A DNA stretch of 64,000 bases from Vulcanimicrobiota bacterium (GTDB lineage Bacteria; Vulcanimicrobiota; Vulcanimicrobiia; Vulcanimicrobiales; Vulcanimicrobiaceae): positions 448,001 through 512,000 of the forward strand of contig CAWGBN010000008.1 in the NCBI GenBank assembly GCA_963820825.1, written 5' to 3'. Shown one piece after another: positions 1,345-8,991 of the stretch (position 1 is its first letter; each line of letters begins with the position of its first letter). The position numbers and the translations under genes were made by a program. Below the pieces are notes generated by a model. That model did not search any database. It was not told the origin of the DNA and saw only the letters and a list, made by a program, of their open reading frames with translations.

Positions 1345-2540
1345 GGATAAACCTTCGTGAGGAGGTCGGAGGTCGTGACGTCGGCTTGTCCGCTGGGGCC
1401 TTTGATCAGCGGCAGTTGCGAGAGGTTCTTGGGATAGGAGGCCTCGAAGGCGGGATAGTCGACGCCCGCCGCATAGACTTCGTACGTTTGCTTCGGACAG
1501 ATCGTCGGTGATTTCTGTCCCGATTGGGTGAGCGGTCCGATGTCGTCGGGCAACGCGAGACCTTGTGCGCCGGCCTTATGCGTAACGACGGTGTAGAACG
1601 CATCATTTTGATGGGACGACTGGACGCAGGCGGGTTGCCCGCTGCCACCCAGCGCGCGCACAACCACCAGCGCCTCGCTCGTACCAGGTGGAGCGTCGAC
1701 GTTAATGGTTCCGCCCCCCTTGCGATCGGGTGTGAACGACGGAGTCGCAAATTGCGGGAGCGGCGTCAGATTGGTGAGCTGTGCGCCGGTCGCGAGAATT
1801 CCCGGCGGGGGCGTTGGGGTGCCGTTGGGACCTGGTGAAGGCGTTGGATCTTGCGGCGTGTCGTAAGCCGGCGGCACCGCGGCGTAGAGATTGTACTTAC
1901 CGACAACCGGCGCGACGGCGAAATCGGTGAAGCCGAGCGAATACCCTTTCCATCCTAGCGCGATGACTTGCGGACCCTCGGCCGGATAGGCCGGCGGTCC
2001 GCCGTACCAAGACTCCTCGTTGTCGCCGTAGATCGGAAGATTGTAGGAAACGAACAACGGTGTCGTGCCGTTCCCCGGCCCCGAGTCGGAGTTGCACGCG
2101 CAGAGCCCGTATCCGAAGGCACCGCTTGTGGAGCGCTTCAAGCCACCGGGTGCCGGCGGAACCCATTGCGTTTGATTGAGCGTCCCCCAGGTGATATGGT
2201 TGCTGCCAAAATCCGAACCCGCCGATTGAACGTCGCTGCCGGTCTCGGTCGAGGTCAGCACGTTGAAGCTGCTGGGACCGATGATCATCGGCACGTTGTA
2301 CAGCGTGCCCGAGAGCCCGTCTTTCTGACGCAGCGTTTCGACGATATTGAGCCCGTAGGCGACGCTCAGCCCGCCATTAAACGACATCGTCGCCACCCCA
2401 ACGGCGAACTGCATCTTGCTGGTCGCTGCCGGATCGAGCGACGTCACCGTCGGCTCCGACGCACCGCCATTGCCGCAGCCGACGATGACCGCGGCAGCGA
2501 CGGCCGTGCCGAGCAGTCCAAAGCCAAGTCGTACGTTCAT
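1341..2540 (-). CDS. Lipoprotein of unknown function, partner of TonB-dependent receptor
   Basis: ATG 2540 overlaps receptor stop (ATGA); signal peptide with VIVGC lipobox; Pro/Thr linker. Confidence 0.8.
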   Translation of the reverse strand: MNVRLGFGLLGTAVAAAVIVGCGNGGASEPTVTSLDPAATSKMQFAVGVATMSFNGGLSVAYGLNIVETLRQKDGLSGTLYNVPMIIGPSSFNVLTSTETGSDVQSAGSDFGSNHITWGTLNQTQWVPPAPGGLKRSTSGAFGYGLCACNSDSGPGNGTTPLFVSYNLPIYGDNEESWYGGPPAYPAEGPQVIALGWKGYSLGFTDFAVAPVVGKYNLYAAVPPAYDTPQDPTPSPGPNGTPTPPPGILATGAQLTNLTPLPQFATPSFTPDRKGGGTINVDAPPGTSEALVVVRALGGSGQPACVQSSHQNDAFYTVVTHKAGAQGLALPDDIGPLTQSGQKSPTICPKQTYEVYAAGVDYPAFEASYPKNLSQLPLIKGPSGQADVTTSDLLTKVYP

Positions 2541-5500
2541 ATCGTCACCTGGTAGTAGAGGCGGAACGAGATCGGCGGTTCGTTGGGATAGGTCAGATAC
2601 GGCTGGTTGCCGTGCGCGGCGAGATCGGGGGGCGCATAGGGCGCCGTGGAATACGTGCACGGCGCGTTACCGCTCGCGAGTCCGGTGCTCACCGGAGATC
2701 CGTAGCAGCCGTTATAGACCGGCACGTTGTAGAGCTCGTTGAAGAGATTGACGATCTGGATTCCAAAGACGGATTGCGCGATGCTGCGCGTCGGCGGCCG
2801 GTACTCAACGGTGAGATCGGCATCGACCCGCGGCGTGGTGAGAAATCCGCCGGGTAAGCCGCGCTCGGCAATGCCGCGCGTCGCCGCGATGTTGGGCTTG
2901 GTGCAGGTGCCCGGATCGAGCGGATCGATGTAGCCGGGCGTATCGGAGTAAATCGTGGCCAGCGCGGTGTTGGGAACGATGACCGGGATCCCGTTGCAGT
3001 AGACCGCCGTGAAGTAGCCCGCGCCGTAGGGATAGCCGGAGTTGGCGTAGATGACGGGATTGAAGCGCCAGCCGTGGCTGTTCTTGTAGTTGAAGGCCGC
3101 GTTGAGCTGAAAGGGCGAAAGATCGGGCGAGCGATAGACGGTCCCCAAAGCCAGCGCCGCCGGTTGCAGGAACGTTCCCGGCGGTTCGTTGCCGAATTGG
3201 CTGATATAGGTGGCGCCGATCTGCCAAGAGAGGCCCAGTGGAACTTCCTTGTTGTAGAGTGCCTCGATTCCCATAGCCTTTTGAATGCCGAGATTGGAAT
3301 ATTGCACGTCGCCGAAAACCGGCGAGCCCGTCTGGTAGTTGAAACCAATGATCTGCGCAGTCTGCTCGATGACGTTGTAGCCGCGCCGGTAGAACGGCGT
3401 CAGTTTGATCGCCGAACCATCGCGAAACTCGTGCGCCCAAGAAAAGTCGATGTTGGTAAACGTCGCCCCCACCAACGGCGCCTCGAGCGTCGAGCTGCCG
3501 AAACGGTAGTCGCGCGTGAGCCAATAGAGTTGATCGGCGTAACTGCCGCAGGTTTGATTGGCCAGCGGTCCGCAGTACTGCGCCGCTTTTCCCGTTGAGT
3601 TGTCATACGATGGAATGGTGTTGAAGGCGGTATAGGGCGCGCGGCTGACATCGGCGCCGATCAGACTGGGCAGCGGCATCGAGAGCGTGTGCCCGAAACC
3701 CACCCGAAACGTATCGCGCTGATCGGGGATGTAGGTCGCGTCGAGATGGGGTTCGTAGAGACGCTGATGTTCGGCCGCCGGGATCGTGGCGGGAGCGCCT
3801 GCTTGCGTCGGAATCAGGAAGTTGTAGCCGTCTAAGCGTAATCCGGCCTCAGCCTTCCAGCGATCGCTCATGTCGACGGTATCTTGCAGATAGGCGCCGT
3901 ACTGTTGCTGCGTGACCGTTTGAACGTCTTCCTCAAACGGAAAGCGCACGCCGCCGGGAAACCACGCGTTCAAATATCCGCAGTTACTCGTCAAGCGCAC
4001 TTGCGCGCAAAACCCCGGCGAGAAGAAGTCTTGCTCTAGGCCTTGCTGCGCTGCCGGGTTGTTGTTCGGCAGCAGCCCGGTGTACGTATAGGGCAACGGC
4101 AGCGGCTGCAGCGGATGCGTGATCGGATAGGTGATGATATACGCCGGCGTCGTCAATGCAGTGTACGACGTAAAGTCGTAGCGATCGCCGTAGGGCTGCA
4201 CGTACTCGTAAAGGCCGCCGTACTTGAGCGTATTCTTGCTGCCGATCTGCGTCGTACCGTCGAGCTGCCCCGCCGTGCGCGAGCCGCCGTAGGGATTGGC
4301 GTAGATCCCTTGGGCCGGCATGATCTGCGACTGATCGCTCCAGGTGCGCCAGTAGCGCGTGGTCAGCAGCGTGCTGCCGCCTACGTTGATCCCGTACTCG
4401 AACTTATAGGCCAGAAACGGGCTCTTGCGCTCGTCGGCCTGCGAAACGAACGCATAGGTATTGGGCTGACCCGGAAAGAGCGGAAGCAGATTGTCGCAGG
4501 CATAGTTCTGCTGCAGGCTGTTGATCGGACCGTTGGGACCGACGATCGGGTAGGGTGCGCACTTGCCCGCGGTGGTGCCGCCCGAGATGTAGGGCAGATA
4601 CTGGAAGCCGCCGTAGTCGAGCGTCTGATCGATCGACTGGTCTTGGATGAAGAACTGCAGCCGCTGGTTGTTGTTCTTACCGAACCGGTAGATCAAGTTA
4701 TCGAGAAAGTCGTTCGACGCCAAGAACTGCGGCGAGTAGTAGACCAAGTTGGGATCGATCGTGCTGCCCAAGGTCGATGCGTTGGTCCCCAGCGTCCCCA
4801 GCGTGTTGGCCGCCGTGCCCGCAATCCCGTACTGAAAGGACCGGCGAATCCCGATGAACCCGGCATAGTTGGAGAGCCGCTGGCTGGGATCGGCCCAACC
4901 CCATTCCAAGCCCAGTTGGTGCAGGTAGGGAAAGAGCAGCGCCTCGGTATCGACGTGCAGATAGGTCGGGTAGGTGCCGTTCTTGGCGGTAAAGAGCACC
5001 AGGCCCGTGCCGGTGTCGCCGTGGGTTGCGTCGCCGGCACCCGGAATCAACTGCACGCCGCCCACCCCGTTGAGCAGGTTGAAGTTGCCGATGTTCTGCA
5101 GCGTATTCTGCAGATTGGCCGTCGGTGTCGTGTAGTCGATCCCCTCGAACTCATAGGCGGCCTCAAAAGCAAAGCCGCCCCGAATCGAGACCGTGCCGGT
5201 CTTATCGATCGTGACGCTGGGAATGCTGCGCAGCAGATCTTCCTCGCGCGCGTTGAACGATTTGCCCATCACCGTCTGAATCTGCGCGCCGGTCACCGTG
5301 TAAGTATCGATCGTCATCCCGTGCTGAAAGGCGCTCCCGGCACCGCGCGCATGGGTCGTCGCGATGATCTTGAGCGTCTTGGAGAGCGCCACCGGGATCG
5401 CTTGCTGCGAGCCGTTGAGCACGACCACGGTATTGGCGTAGGGCAGATACCCGCTGTGGGTCACCGAGAGCGAGTACGTGTCGGGCAGCACCGAGAGAAA

Positions 5501-7190: not shown

Positions 7191-7266
7191 AGCCTAATCT
7201 AGCAAGCGATTCTTAAGTGCCCATTATCCCTTCCGCTACGTCATCCTAAGGACGCGCATCCCGGCG

Positions 7267-7307
7267 CCCTTCGACTGCTCTCTGCGCTCGCGCTCTGGGT
7301 GACACAT
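7267..7307. repeat. REP-like element, degenerate copy 1
   Basis: CCTTCGAC...GCTCTGGGTGACACAT; inverted partner GTCATCC at 7240-7246; same orientation as copy at 7636. Confidence 0.55.
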
Positions 7308-7363
7308 CTAGACGCGCTGCGCCCGGGCGACAAGGAGTTTGAACTGTGTCACGGCCACTACAA

Positions 7364-7393
7364 ACGAGGCGCCGCATTACTGCGACGCCTCGT
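7364..7393 (-). terminator. 13-bp hairpin with GTAA (GNRA) loop, likely 3' end of a minus-strand RNA
   Basis: Minus strand ACGAGGCGTCGCA-GTAA-TGCGGCGCCTCGT then TTG; G.U wobble and GNRA loop occur only on the minus strand; T-tract is weak. Confidence 0.55.
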
Positions 7394-7477
7394 GCGTTTC
7401 GATGTGTCGACGACCTGATACGTTGCCGACGATATCACATCTGCAGCGACTTCGCAACGGCTTTGGTCCGTTCCGGC

Positions 7478-7549
7478 TGGAGCGCCCGGGAATCGAACCC
7501 GGAGCCGATCGGCGTATCAGATCGTCGGTCGACACCATCGAAGCGCCCC
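7478..7549 (-). ncRNA. Non-canonical tRNA-like element with alanine-type acceptor stem
   Basis: GGGGCGC/GCGCTCC-A acceptor (G3.U70, A73), perfect T arm CCGGG-TTCGATT-CCCGG, 72 nt; D and anticodon arms aberrant; no encoded CCA. Confidence 0.7.
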
Positions 7550-7591
7550 AGCCCATCTCATTCACGCGGTGAAGACGCAATGACAATGCGA

Positions 7592-7621
7592 CGAAGGCGC
7601 GCTTCGATTAGCGCGCCTTCG
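7592..7621. terminator. 12-bp perfect hairpin downstream of the TIGR03803-like gene
   Basis: CGAAGGCGCGCT-TCGATT-AGCGCGCCTTCG. Confidence 0.5.
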
Positions 7622-7635
7622 CTCAAACGTCGCTC

Positions 7636-7679
7636 GTCCTTCGACACGCGCGCTCCGCGCGCGGCTCAGGATGACACAT
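7636..7679. repeat. REP-like element, copy 2 (TGTCATCCTGAGC...GTCGAAGGAC type)
   Basis: Minus strand TGTCATCCTGAGCCGCGCGCGGAGCGCGCGTGTCGAAGGAC with internal palindrome. Confidence 0.65.
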
Positions 7680-7686
7680 TTCAGAG

Positions 7687-8925
7687 CTACGGGATCAAGC
7701 GGAAGACCGTGCCGTAGTATTCGGCGGCGCCGCCCCAGAAGGTCGTTCCGTAGAGAACGCCGTTGACGTTTCGCAGACCCGCTTCGGGATTTGCACCGTT
7801 GGGATCGCCGCGGAAGCGATAGACGACGTGTTCGGTTCCGAAGTGGTCGGTGCGGAAGATCGTACCGCAGCGATAGTAGCCGTCCTTGCGAACGGCGCCC
7901 GACGAAATGCATTGGTTGGCCTTATGCGGACTATAACCGCCGCCGGTCGTCGTGCCGTAGAGCTGCCCGTTAACGTTGGAGAGGCCAGCAACGGGATATG
8001 CACCGTCGAGTTTAAAGCCGAAGCTATGGATCACGAGCTCGTGGCCTTGCGGCGTCATCTCGTAGATCGTTCCTCGCTCCTCCTCTCCGCCGCCGCGGGT
8101 CGTTCCGAAAAAGACGCCGTTGTAGTAGAGCAGCGTGCCGTTGGGCCCTTTTCCATCGCCGTTCGTGACCGCAAAACTATGCAGGACCTTCTCTTGACCT
8201 AACGCGTTGATCCGATAGACGCTTCCGCCCGATTCGGTCTTGCCGCCGGCGAGCGTCACGCCGTAAAGCCAGTTGTTGACGCGAACGAGCCCGCCGCCGG
8301 GATGTCCGCCGTCGCTCGGCGCCCCGGCAAAGCTATGGAGCACGGTCTCGTCGCCGGCTGGATCGACGGCAAAGACGATGCCGCGATCGTGTTTGCCGCC
8401 CTGACGCGTCGTGCCGTAGAGAACTCCGTTGACAACGAGCAATCGCGATTCGGGATCGGTGCCGTCGCTCGGTCTGCCGAAGTTGTAAACGACGTGTTCG
8501 CTGTCGCCGGGACTCATCGAGTAGACGGTTCCGCCGCCGTGCACGCCGCCGGCGGAGGTGGTACCGTAGAGCTGCCCGTTGAGTGAGACCAGATCCGCCA
8601 GCGGATACGCGCCGTCGGGCGTTCCGGTAAATTTGTGGACGGTGCGGAACTTGCCAAGCGGGCTGATCGCAAATACCGTGCCGTAGCCGGCGCCGTACGA
8701 CGAAGTCGTTCCGTAGAGCGTGCCTTTGACGTTGACGAGCGAGGCTTGCGGCTCCCCGCCGCTCATCTCGCCTTTAAAGCTGTAAAGCGTTACCAAGTTA
8801 GCACTCTCGGGCGACGTTCGAAACGCCGCGTCGGTAAGCGAGCCACCGGGCAGCGCCCCGCCTCCGGCGATTCGGGAACAGCCAACGATGAGAAGAGAGC
8901 AAGCAATCAATGTAAGAGTGCGCAC
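7687..8925 (-). CDS. Lipoprotein with TIGR03803-type (GloVer) tandem repeats, beta-propeller
   Basis: LIVGC lipobox; repeated DG..P.A.L....G.LYGTT..GG....GTV(F/Y). Confidence 0.85.
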   Translation of the reverse strand: MRTLTLIACSLLIVGCSRIAGGGALPGGSLTDAAFRTSPESANLVTLYSFKGEMSGGEPQASLVNVKGTLYGTTSSYGAGYGTVFAISPLGKFRTVHKFTGTPDGAYPLADLVSLNGQLYGTTSAGGVHGGGTVYSMSPGDSEHVVYNFGRPSDGTDPESRLLVVNGVLYGTTRQGGKHDRGIVFAVDPAGDETVLHSFAGAPSDGGHPGGGLVRVNNWLYGVTLAGGKTESGGSVYRINALGQEKVLHSFAVTNGDGKGPNGTLLYYNGVFFGTTRGGGEEERGTIYEMTPQGHELVIHSFGFKLDGAYPVAGLSNVNGQLYGTTTGGGYSPHKANQCISSGAVRKDGYYRCGTIFRTDHFGTEHVVYRFRGDPNGANPEAGLRNVNGVLYGTTFWGGAAEYYGTVFRLIP

Positions 8926-8991
8926 GACGACCCTCCGAGTGCCGCAGCGAGGCGGCAAAAACGTTGCTTTCCGTTCTGCGATACGGCTCTC

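Follow-up and report, generated by a model that had tools for sequence, protein, structure and literature searches.

A tRNA-alanine-shaped RNA with a co-conserved antisense segment at intergenic loci of Vulcanimicrobiota

The window analysed here is a stretch of 64,000 nucleotides (nt) from the genome of a Vulcanimicrobiota bacterium (GenBank assembly GCA_963820825.1, contig CAWGBN010000008.1, forward-strand positions 448,001 to 512,000). An earlier note, made from the letters of this stretch, had pointed to a tRNA-shaped RNA of 72 nt on its minus strand. This RNA is present exactly as quoted there, with G3.U70, A73 and an intact T arm. The 72 nt are the 5´ module, the first third, of a conserved unit of ~194 nt (Table 1). 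Downstream of the tRNA-like module, the remaining ~120 nt hold, in order, hairpin H1, a conserved GUUGCGAAG, a conserved GAUGUGnUA, a variable segment, the conserved linker ACACAUCGAAACGC and a terminator-like hairpin. Directly after A73 the gene reads GCC and not CCA. The variable segment is complementary to the anticodon-like arm of the module, and we suggest that the locus might give rise to two RNAs, a tRNA-like RNA-1 and a short antisense RNA-2. The family and its structure we regard as practically secure on comparative sequence evidence; the steps built upon them are proposed with graded confidence below.

Table 1. Parts of the conserved unit. Coordinates are window positions (window offset on the contig, 448000); all parts lie on the minus strand.
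Feature	Position	Strand	Basis or remark
Whole conserved unit (tRNA-like module, 3´ domain, terminator)	7359..7552	-	covariance model R1, 195 bits, model positions 1-193; contig 8 455359-455552
P1 -35-like hexamer TTGTCA	7581..7586	-	putative promoter; TTG 32-48 nt upstream of G1 in 89/117 units, most commonly at -37
P1 -10-like hexamer GAATGA, 17 nt past the -35	7558..7563	-	family consensus GATGGA; weak likeness to TATAAT
Leader GCU, pairs with A73-G-C and extends the acceptor helix to 10 bp	7550..7552	-	G/C/U in 97/90/91% of 117 units
tRNA-like module, 72 nt	7478..7549	-	sequence read, ARAGORN, covariation
Acceptor strands GGGGCGC / GCGCUCC	7543-7549 / 7479-7485	-	G3 (7547) opposite U70 (7481)
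A73	7478	-	sequence read
Connector U8	7542	-	sequence read
D arm UCGA-UGGUG-UCGA	7529-7541	-	sequence read, covariation
Anticodon-like arm, 24 nt	7505-7528	-	covariation; loop CUGAUAC 7514-7520
CU connector	7503-7504	-	sequence read
T arm CCGGG-UUCGAUU-CCCGG	7486-7502	-	sequence read, covariation
Target segment CGACGAUCUGAUACG, 5´ strand and loop of the anticodon-like arm	7513..7527	-	complement of 7408-7422
Hairpin H1, adjoins the extended acceptor helix	7453..7475	-	79.6% paired; 3´ strand overlaps the P2 -35
P2 -35 hexamer TTGCGA	7452..7457	-	motif at the same place in 111/117 units
P2 extended -10: TG (7436-7437), n, TATCGT (7429-7434)	7429..7437	-	TGnTAnnnT in 85/89 aligned units
Antisense segment CGUAUCAGGUCGUCG, predicted 5´ end of RNA-2	7408..7422	-	longest complement to the anticodon arm; +1 predicted at about 7421-7423
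Conserved linker ACACAUCGAAACGC	7394..7407	-	CACAUC (7401-7406) can pair with GAUGUG (7436-7441), helix H3, in a long transcript
Terminator-like hairpin (7365-7392) and U-rich tail	7358..7392	-	11-bp helix, 92.6% paired

Relatives of the unit are numerous. A blastn search with 86 nt returned matches in 27 of 61 genomes (own genome counted); of the 36 genomes searched that belong to the same genus, 23 had matches. Full-length relatives within the genus number 31, several per genome being common, and one genome carries a head-to-tail array with a period of ~310 nt. A degenerate pattern, composed of the 5´ part and the T loop, was scanned over a collection of species-representative genomes and matched 110 stretches. 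Their titles, as shown, are mostly those of Eremiobacterota/Vulcanimicrobiota (Ca. Cybelea, Baltobacteraceae, Elarobacter, Aquilonibacter, Tyrphobacter), with a few otherwise labelled. Together with 63 further stretches found by a second pattern in metagenome contigs, the total exceeds 170 loci, nearly all of them of Eremiobacterota. The second pattern had no match in viral contigs, and a phage origin was rejected on this ground. The covariance model R1, with 193 positions and 55 pairs, finds a single copy in the genome of the window. Many genera of the same family give strong matches, scoring above about 100 bits, and another family of the class has true members that score less (42-63 bits). 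The R1 matches of 40-50 bits in the large-genome family f20 of the phylum were discarded, as they are real tRNA-Asp and tRNA-Phe gene pairs. Weak matches of 20-40 bits are for that reason not to be counted as members, and the figure of 106 of 151 genomes with R1 matches overstates the spread.

Taken alone, the 72 nt fold no better than shuffled sequences (z = -0.92), and the case therefore rests on comparison with relatives. In an alignment of 89 sequences that are less than 88% identical to each other, the structure reaches 88.7% pairing. This falls to 80.8% in shuffles and to 34-45% if the partners are shifted by 1-3 columns; none of 500 shuffles equals the observed value on any of five measures. 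In the same alignment, the acceptor helix with its leader is 98.8% paired. Its pair -2:74 changes on both sides, from CG to UA or GC, in 7 of the 89 sequences, and pair 7:66 occurs in four forms, pairs 1-6 being nearly invariant. Pairing of the T stem amounts to 99.1%, and 110 of 118 unique copies have UUCGAUU as their T loop. Further downstream, five of the eight pairs of H1 change on both sides (those over the TTG vary on the 5´ side only), helix H3 is 89.1% paired, and nine of the eleven pairs of the terminator-like helix change on both sides. The homologues from Eremiobacterota thus carry compensatory changes, so the module is not a decayed pseudo-tRNA.

The middle of the module is where our reading departs from the earlier note, which had likened the D region to the 5´ end of transfer-messenger RNA (tmRNA). 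UCGA/UCGA is a true 4-bp D stem over a 5-nt loop, UGGUG. It is constant in the main group and is replaced by UGGA/UCCA, CCGC/GCGG or CUCC/GGAG in distant members; all four pairs change on both sides, and the stem is 98.4% paired in a model-fitted alignment, which leans toward structure. According to the description in PMC3968760, the D loop of tmRNA is diminished and lacks a stem, which leaves room for SmpB. For the segment between the D and T arms two weak folds had been offered. The one that presents CUGAUAC as a 7-nt loop is borne out by covariation, on a bulged 8-bp stem, and the CGATC/GATCG stem is not. This anticodon-like arm has a one-base bulge, is 87% paired, and seven of its eight pairs change on both sides. 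By a count of the pairs, the stack that links the four-way junction with the loop exceeds that of a tRNA by ~2 bp, and the connectors measure 1, 0, 2 and 0 nt.

The alanine marks of the acceptor are conserved to a high degree. G3.U70 is found in all 89 aligned sequences and in 117 of the 118 unique copies, A73 likewise in 117 of 118, and the 5´ GGGGCG in 61 of 62 metagenome copies. The 3´ strand lay outside the retrieval pattern of the 118-copy set, and the 5´ strand outside that of the metagenome set. By these counts, the alanine identity set (G1-C72, G2-C71, G3.U70, G4-C69, A73), of which the earlier note had recognised G3.U70 and A73, is under strong purifying selection. The G3.U70 wobble never turns into G-C while its neighbour covaries, and this points to something that reads the wobble. 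The known reader of G3.U70 and A73 is alanyl-tRNA synthetase (AlaRS), as stated in PMC3968760, and the selected marks suggest contact with this enzyme. Because the marks are kept as in real tRNA-Ala, the identity set may be read here by a factor other than the decoding system.

The second conserved property of the unit is its internal complementarity. Mutual information and pair counts reveal that the variable segment ~100 nt downstream covaries with the loop and 5´ strand of the anticodon-like arm. Between columns 28-41 and 155-167, 94.4% of cells are paired and 12 of 12 pairs change on both sides, with two further pairs at 87%. In the window, CGACGAUCUGAUACG pairs with CGUAUCAGGUCGUCG. The longest contiguous complement to the arm has a mean of 14.3 nt and a mode of 15; a fully extended duplex that includes the 3´ strand of the arm is weakly supported (60% paired). 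The long-range helix and the anticodon-like stem are both supported by covariation, and they cannot coexist since they use the same bases. The main non-Watson-Crick pair is G.U (for example, UG in 23 of 89 sequences at columns 32:163). Because the mismatches are mostly G.U on the minus strand, they speak for pairing of the RNA of that strand and not for a DNA repeat.

The pairs are also specific. Among 118 units the duplex energy is -32.7 +/- 4.9 kcal/mol for cognate and -17.6 +/- 6.0 kcal/mol for non-cognate combinations, and the independent metagenome set gives -31.9 and -19.0 kcal/mol. Within one genome that holds several units, the cognate segment is the best partner in seven of eight rows tested. 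Conservation, the covariation of two mutually exclusive helices and this pair specificity are direct observations, as are the promoter-motif statistics that follow.

Ahead of the antisense segment, the pattern TTGNNN-(16-18)-TAnnnT stands at a fixed place (P2) in 111 of 117 unique units, with a spacer of 17 nt in 98 of them. TG is found at -15/-14 in 109 of the 111. The motif recurs in 61 of 62 independent metagenome units, all of them with TG. Over the 89 aligned units, the columns read T (86), G (88), n, T (89), A (87), three variable positions and T (87); the motif is counted 98 times on the sense strand versus 13 times on the other strand. In 145 of 159 units the complement begins 5-8 nt past the final T of the -10 (first base G in 111), just where a transcript would start. 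A divergent subfamily, which belongs to another family of the class, has a longer and different RNA between the modules. Three of its four members examined have TTGCAT, TTGCAG or TTGAAA, a 17-nt spacer, TATAAT or TACATT, an antisense stretch and a terminator; the fourth has a spacer of 19 nt. A weaker pattern (P1) precedes the module itself, with TTG at about -37, 17 nt and GATGGA, and would start RNA-1 at the GCU leader. On the motif statistics we consider it fairly probable that P2 is an internal promoter which produces a separate antisense small RNA (sRNA). The predicted RNA-2 of the window is ~60 nt long, and its nt 1-14 have a mean unpaired probability of 0.57. In the distant subfamily, from which the linker ACACAUCGAAACGC is missing, it would be shorter, barely more than the antisense stretch and the terminator.

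Two side observations concern this part of the unit. In the distant-subfamily members L198, L199 and L205 an extra hairpin lies between the tRNA-like module and P2, with most of the antisense sequence present again in its loop (for example ACAGGUCUG); a long transcript would therefore hold a separate kissing partner in cis beside the RNA-2 copy. In the window, the stretch from the P2 -10 through the antisense segment to the terminator (7366-7445, minus strand) gives a sub-threshold Rfam match to the Salmonella sRNA isrJ (RF01393; 30.5 bits against a cut-off of 37, E 6e-4), which we take as a chance likeness of hairpin and terminator.

We suggest, with about even confidence, that the unit is a two-RNA locus specific to Eremiobacterota, in which the tRNA-like RNA is controlled by a dedicated antisense sRNA of ~60 nt, together with a fold-back in cis. 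RNA-1 would start ~3 nt before G1 and fold as a four-arm, L-shaped tRNA look-alike, the anticodon-like arm of which, with 8 bp, would be too long to decode. Approximately 45 nt past A73, a near-consensus sigma-70 promoter, TTGCGA-17-TGaTATCGT, would launch RNA-2. Its first ~15 nt would be antisense to the 5´ strand and loop of the arm, and the shared terminator would give its 3´ end. The first contact would be made by the 7-nt loop, often a YUNR U-turn, before the pairing invades the stem. The anticodon arm would in this way be opened, the D/anticodon stack broken and the L shape lost, the acceptor/T minihelix staying intact; the RNA-1/RNA-2 duplex might be a substrate of RNase III, which is present in the genome. 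RNA-1 that reads through would mask itself, since the same segment can fold back in cis. Every paralogue possesses a matching pair of its own. The effect of pairing and the role of the tRNA-like RNA are our proposal. If it is correct, and we see the chances as balanced, the opening of an anticodon arm is a way in which bacteria can control an RNA of tRNA shape.

The arrangement matches the loop-linear recognition of hok/sok, and the locus is for this reason read as arm-opening by the antisense sRNA or by the segment in cis. In hok/sok, as described in PMC4485353, the 5´ tail of the antisense RNA pairs with the loop of the target hairpin and YUNR U-turn loops speed the pairing, and according to the title of Thisted 1994, cited therein, the 3´ end of the Hok mRNA competes for the same site. 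The likeness, seen at the level of sequence, would comprise a 5´ tail directed to a loop, YUNR in many copies, a putative strong antisense promoter next to a putative weak target promoter, and a competing 3´ element. There are two differences. Firstly, the target here is no mRNA and has no conserved open reading frame (ORF), so that no toxic peptide is found. Secondly, both RNAs lie on the same strand and have a common terminator; the complementarity therefore stems from an inverted repeat and not from overlapping transcription.

Several points weigh against this proposal. A simple promoter and terminator scan of 7250-7750 returned nothing at its thresholds. By our own count the P2 hexamers of the window match the consensus at 8 of 12 positions, P1 fits it poorly, and the U tract of the terminator is weak in the window. 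TGnTAnnnT and TTG could be motifs at the RNA level, as TG falls within H3 and TTG within H1. The firing of P1 and P2, the transcript ends and the processing are predictions. No terminator lies between the module and P2, hence RNA-1 holds the antisense segment in cis and a separate RNA-2 would be partly redundant. For RNase III, a duplex of 15 bp is short; YUNR stands at the start of the loop in 68 of 118 copies only, and Hfq was not found in the genome, which is 85% complete (2.98 Mb in 9 contigs).

The alternative that survives best is a single structured noncoding RNA (ncRNA) of ~194 nt without an internal promoter. The hairpin of the arm would then kiss the downstream segment or form a pseudoknot with it, or switch between both states, and TTG and TGnTAnnnT would be contacts of RNA or protein. 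Both helices covary, RNAalifold applied to the whole alignment chooses the long-range one, the 10-bp terminal helix adjoins H1, and H3 encloses the downstream segment. The absence of a terminator between the modules also fits, and so does the conserved pairing of leader and trailer, which one would expect of a mature RNA that retains its 5´ end. However, a T-G-n-T-A-n-n-n-T with degenerate n, a fixed 17 nt to TTG and a complement at the expected +1 are what a promoter predicts, and we know of no RNA motif with the conservation pattern of TGnTAnnnT. The distant subfamily has a plain TATAAT at this place despite different surrounding RNA. Since the two helices cannot coexist, one static fold is excluded. 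We regard the single RNA as possible but rather unlikely.

Another possibility is that RNA-2 is a working regulator of mRNAs and the tRNA-like RNA its co-encoded sponge or decoy. A comparable case is the tRNA-precursor spacer 3´ETS-leuZ (ETS, external transcribed spacer), which sponges sRNAs in E. coli. RNA-2 is indeed laid out as a classical sRNA, with a largely unpaired 5´ seed, a linker that is conserved in the main subfamily, and a terminator. Yet the RNA-2 of the distant subfamily is minimal, the seeds differ among paralogues while they always fit their own tRNA-like partner, and it stays unexplained why a decoy should keep a full tRNA shape with the alanine identity set. We therefore hold the sponge to be improbable. 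The seed was also tried against other RNAs of this genome and has no strong match there. Real tRNAs were rejected as targets (best -19.6 kcal/mol, versus -26.8 for its own partner), and tmRNA as well (-16.0, worse than the shuffled-seed mean of -22.8).

The third possibility is that the 72-nt RNA is trimmed, supplied with CCA, charged by AlaRS and active in translation, where it would either engage SmpB and the ribosome in the manner of a message-less head of tmRNA or, as a mis-decoding tRNA, place alanine at Ile, Val or Asp codons. Both variants had been raised in the earlier note, together with the statement that the RNA is neither a standard tRNA nor a full tmRNA. The latter statement is correct. 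ARAGORN makes no ordinary tRNA call and reports "tRNA-???" with a 4-base anticodon at 7475-7550; nowhere in the window is the gathering score of an Rfam family attained, and the best permissive matches are to tRNA-Sec (24.8 bits, cut-off 47), the highest-scoring member of the tRNA clan CL00001, and mascRNA (22.2 bits, cut-off 42.5). The module has the 7-bp acceptor, the 5-bp T stem with T-loop and the D stem with GG in the loop of a canonical tRNA. The canonical combination of a 5-bp anticodon stem, 7-nt loop, invariant U33 and purine 37 is not found. There is no mRNA-like domain either, just 24 nt between the D arm and the T arm, and the frame that opens with the D-loop AUG ends after 4 to 59 codons across copies, which means that no ORF is conserved. 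A peptide gene was thereby rejected, as neither this frame nor a 69-aa ORF is kept in relatives. The latter (7377-7586, minus strand) spans the RNA unit and would be a false gene call.

The nearly invariant identity set is favorable to a role in translation. The genome encodes SmpB, and it has tRNA genes without encoded CCA together with a gene of the CCA/poly(A)-polymerase family, so that maturation of the tRNA-like RNA is conceivable. Further, a molecule like the tRNA-like domain (TLD) of tmRNA is reported in PMC4131195 to inhibit tmRNA. Against the tmRNA head, the covarying D stem and the full anticodon-like arm fill the place that SmpB occupies on tmRNA (as outlined in PMC3968760). The genome has a normal tmRNA of its own (contig 7 205945-206298, 112.8 bits), whose tag frame ends with codons translated as ANHEYALAA. 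The tmRNA model, RF00023, gives 11 weak matches, among which are the three tRNA-Ala genes (anticodons TGC, GGC and CGC), and the tRNA-like element is not one of them. Against the mis-decoding tRNA stands the 8-bp anticodon stem, and the loop covaries with its downstream partner. Among the 112 of 118 copies that fall into the 25 commonest loop types, 81 have U as the second base of the loop and 27 have C; the "anticodons" would read GAU, GAC, GUC, GAG and others. The module does not look like a decoder.

The 3´ end poses a difficulty for both variants and may never be freed, because the leader-trailer pairing is conserved, the trailer is GCC and not CCA, and the RNase Z equivalog model is not reached in this genome (39 bits versus 293). 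A scan of metagenome contigs gave no CCA-ended form, which is weak evidence as assemblies rarely keep such ends. FemAB and aminoacyl-phosphatidylglycerol synthase domains, which use Ala-tRNA outside the ribosome, were not found in the 85%-complete genome, and neither was an Rsr/TROVE gene. Alanylation of the tRNA-like RNA is thus conceivable, though we lean toward doubting it, and an action in translation seems quite improbable to us. That the element is neither a decoding tRNA nor a tmRNA we hold with high confidence.

Some minor observations belong to the tRNA and tmRNA genes of the host. Three weak matches to the tmRNA model (18-23 bits) that are not ARAGORN tRNAs, on contig 6 (691205-691272 and 697770-697802) and contig 8 (652498-652583), may be other tRNA-like fragments. 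ARAGORN misses the tmRNA that Infernal finds in the genome, the T loop of which is GGCGGUA versus the usual UUCGAAU type. Several over-long ARAGORN "tRNAs" of 86-95 nt (Ala-cgc C6:283103, Arg-ccg C6:424655, Pro-cgg C7:371763, Gly-ccc C8:437553) look false. For annotators, ARAGORN's tRNA calls with 4-base anticodons at loci of this family could be mistaken for frameshift-suppressor tRNAs.

A feature of DNA, be it inverted repeats for recombination or protein binding, a decayed pseudo-tRNA or an integration scar, might account for the segments repeated in inverted orientation ~100 bp apart and for the truncated copies at array edges, but it is already contradicted by six covarying helices and by mismatches that are mostly G.U on the minus strand (A.C on the other), both acceptor strands are present and thus no att duplication is involved, the intergenic sites are syntenic and conserved in many species, and we give it hardly any credence.

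tRNA mimicry outside translation is known from few RNAs, for instance tmRNA, Y RNAs and viral tRNA-like ends. The bacterial Y RNA YrlA is an ncRNA that holds a tRNA-like module with a T arm; here, the Rfam match on the T arm reaches 14.2 bits at best, and the module ends at the acceptor, not at the anticodon side. The unit shares with tRNA-Ala and with the TLD of tmRNA a 7-bp acceptor starting from GGGG, G3.U70, A73, a 5-bp T stem and the UUCGAUU loop. It differs from both in the bulged 8-bp anticodon stem, the 5-nt D loop and connectors of 1 and 2 nt, and from tmRNA also in that it lacks a message domain and possesses a D stem; CCA is not encoded. Mycobacteriophage DS6A has a TLD-only ssrA (Hudson, Lau and Williams 2014, PMC4131195), described as a short, alanine-type tRNA-like RNA without message, and TLD-like molecules are said in that paper to inhibit tmRNA, perhaps by titration of SmpB. 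That is a single phage gene, whereas the present elements are chromosomal and multi-copy, with D and anticodon-like arms and an antisense partner; the two are compared here by their descriptions. In the type VIII toxin-antitoxin system SdsR/RyeA, an RNA effector is masked by an antisense RNA, as would be the case here, but both come from opposite strands of one locus and neither is tRNA-like (as presented in PMC8610362). Allo-tRNAs with G3:U70 are also non-canonical cloverleaves with the alanine mark in soil bacteria (Mukai et al. 2017, PMC5389517). By that account they decode, and they combine long variable arms with acceptor/T branches of 8/4 or 9/3, in contrast to the 7/5 branches, 2-nt variable region and non-decoder look found here.

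In none of these closest known systems is an RNA of tRNA-Ala shape, chromosomal and multi-copy, joined with an antisense partner that is encoded beside it and specific to the paralogue. The family is absent from Rfam 15, and we found no description of it in open-access papers and preprints, although it might have been reported elsewhere. A little-studied phylum of soil and peat keeps, per genome, one to ~10 copies of a tRNA-alanine look-alike, each with an antisense partner of its own. One may go further and imagine an RNA-only addiction or regulatory module, the effector being an alanine-chargeable, non-decoding tRNA mimic which is silenced by the fold-back and by a paralogue-specific antisense sRNA from the stronger promoter. 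After 3´ trimming, the RNA would be loaded by AlaRS and then hamper translation or ribosome rescue, or deliver alanine outside the ribosome. We consider this extension unlikely. If true, a tRNA mimic would here underlie a toxin-antitoxin-like system of a new class; the chance that the loci are such a new kind of RNA-only module is modest.

The genes around the unit vary with the type of locus and recur across species. Over 23 loci, the neighbours are radical SAM (7), acyl-CoA dehydrogenase with sucC (5) and phosphorylase with GTPase (3); the unit of this window is flanked by a LuxR-type regulator and an unannotated protein. With neighbours that vary in this way, a constant protein partner beside the unit was rejected, and their recurrence looks like the synteny of several old paralogous intergenic sites rather than a functional link. 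The gene directly upstream (7687-8958, minus strand) encodes a 423-aa protein without Pfam match and with the C-terminus ...AEYYGTVFRLIP. Between this gene and the RNA unit, at 7587-7663, lie GC-rich inverted repeats, for example GAAGGCGCGC-UAAUCGAA-GCGCGCCUUC at ~7593-7620, which are probably the terminator of the upstream gene; a permissive Rfam match of the repeats to CC1840 (16.4 bits, cut-off 50) is not meaningful. Lastly, a decayed unit is found at the edge of a five-unit tandem array (locus L010, G032:C3, ~2280-2600, minus strand). In it, the 5´ strand of the acceptor is fused straight to the T arm, giving a natural "minihelix" without D or anticodon arm, and an intact P2-like motif, an antisense-type segment and a terminator follow further on; the unit scores 69 bits with R1.

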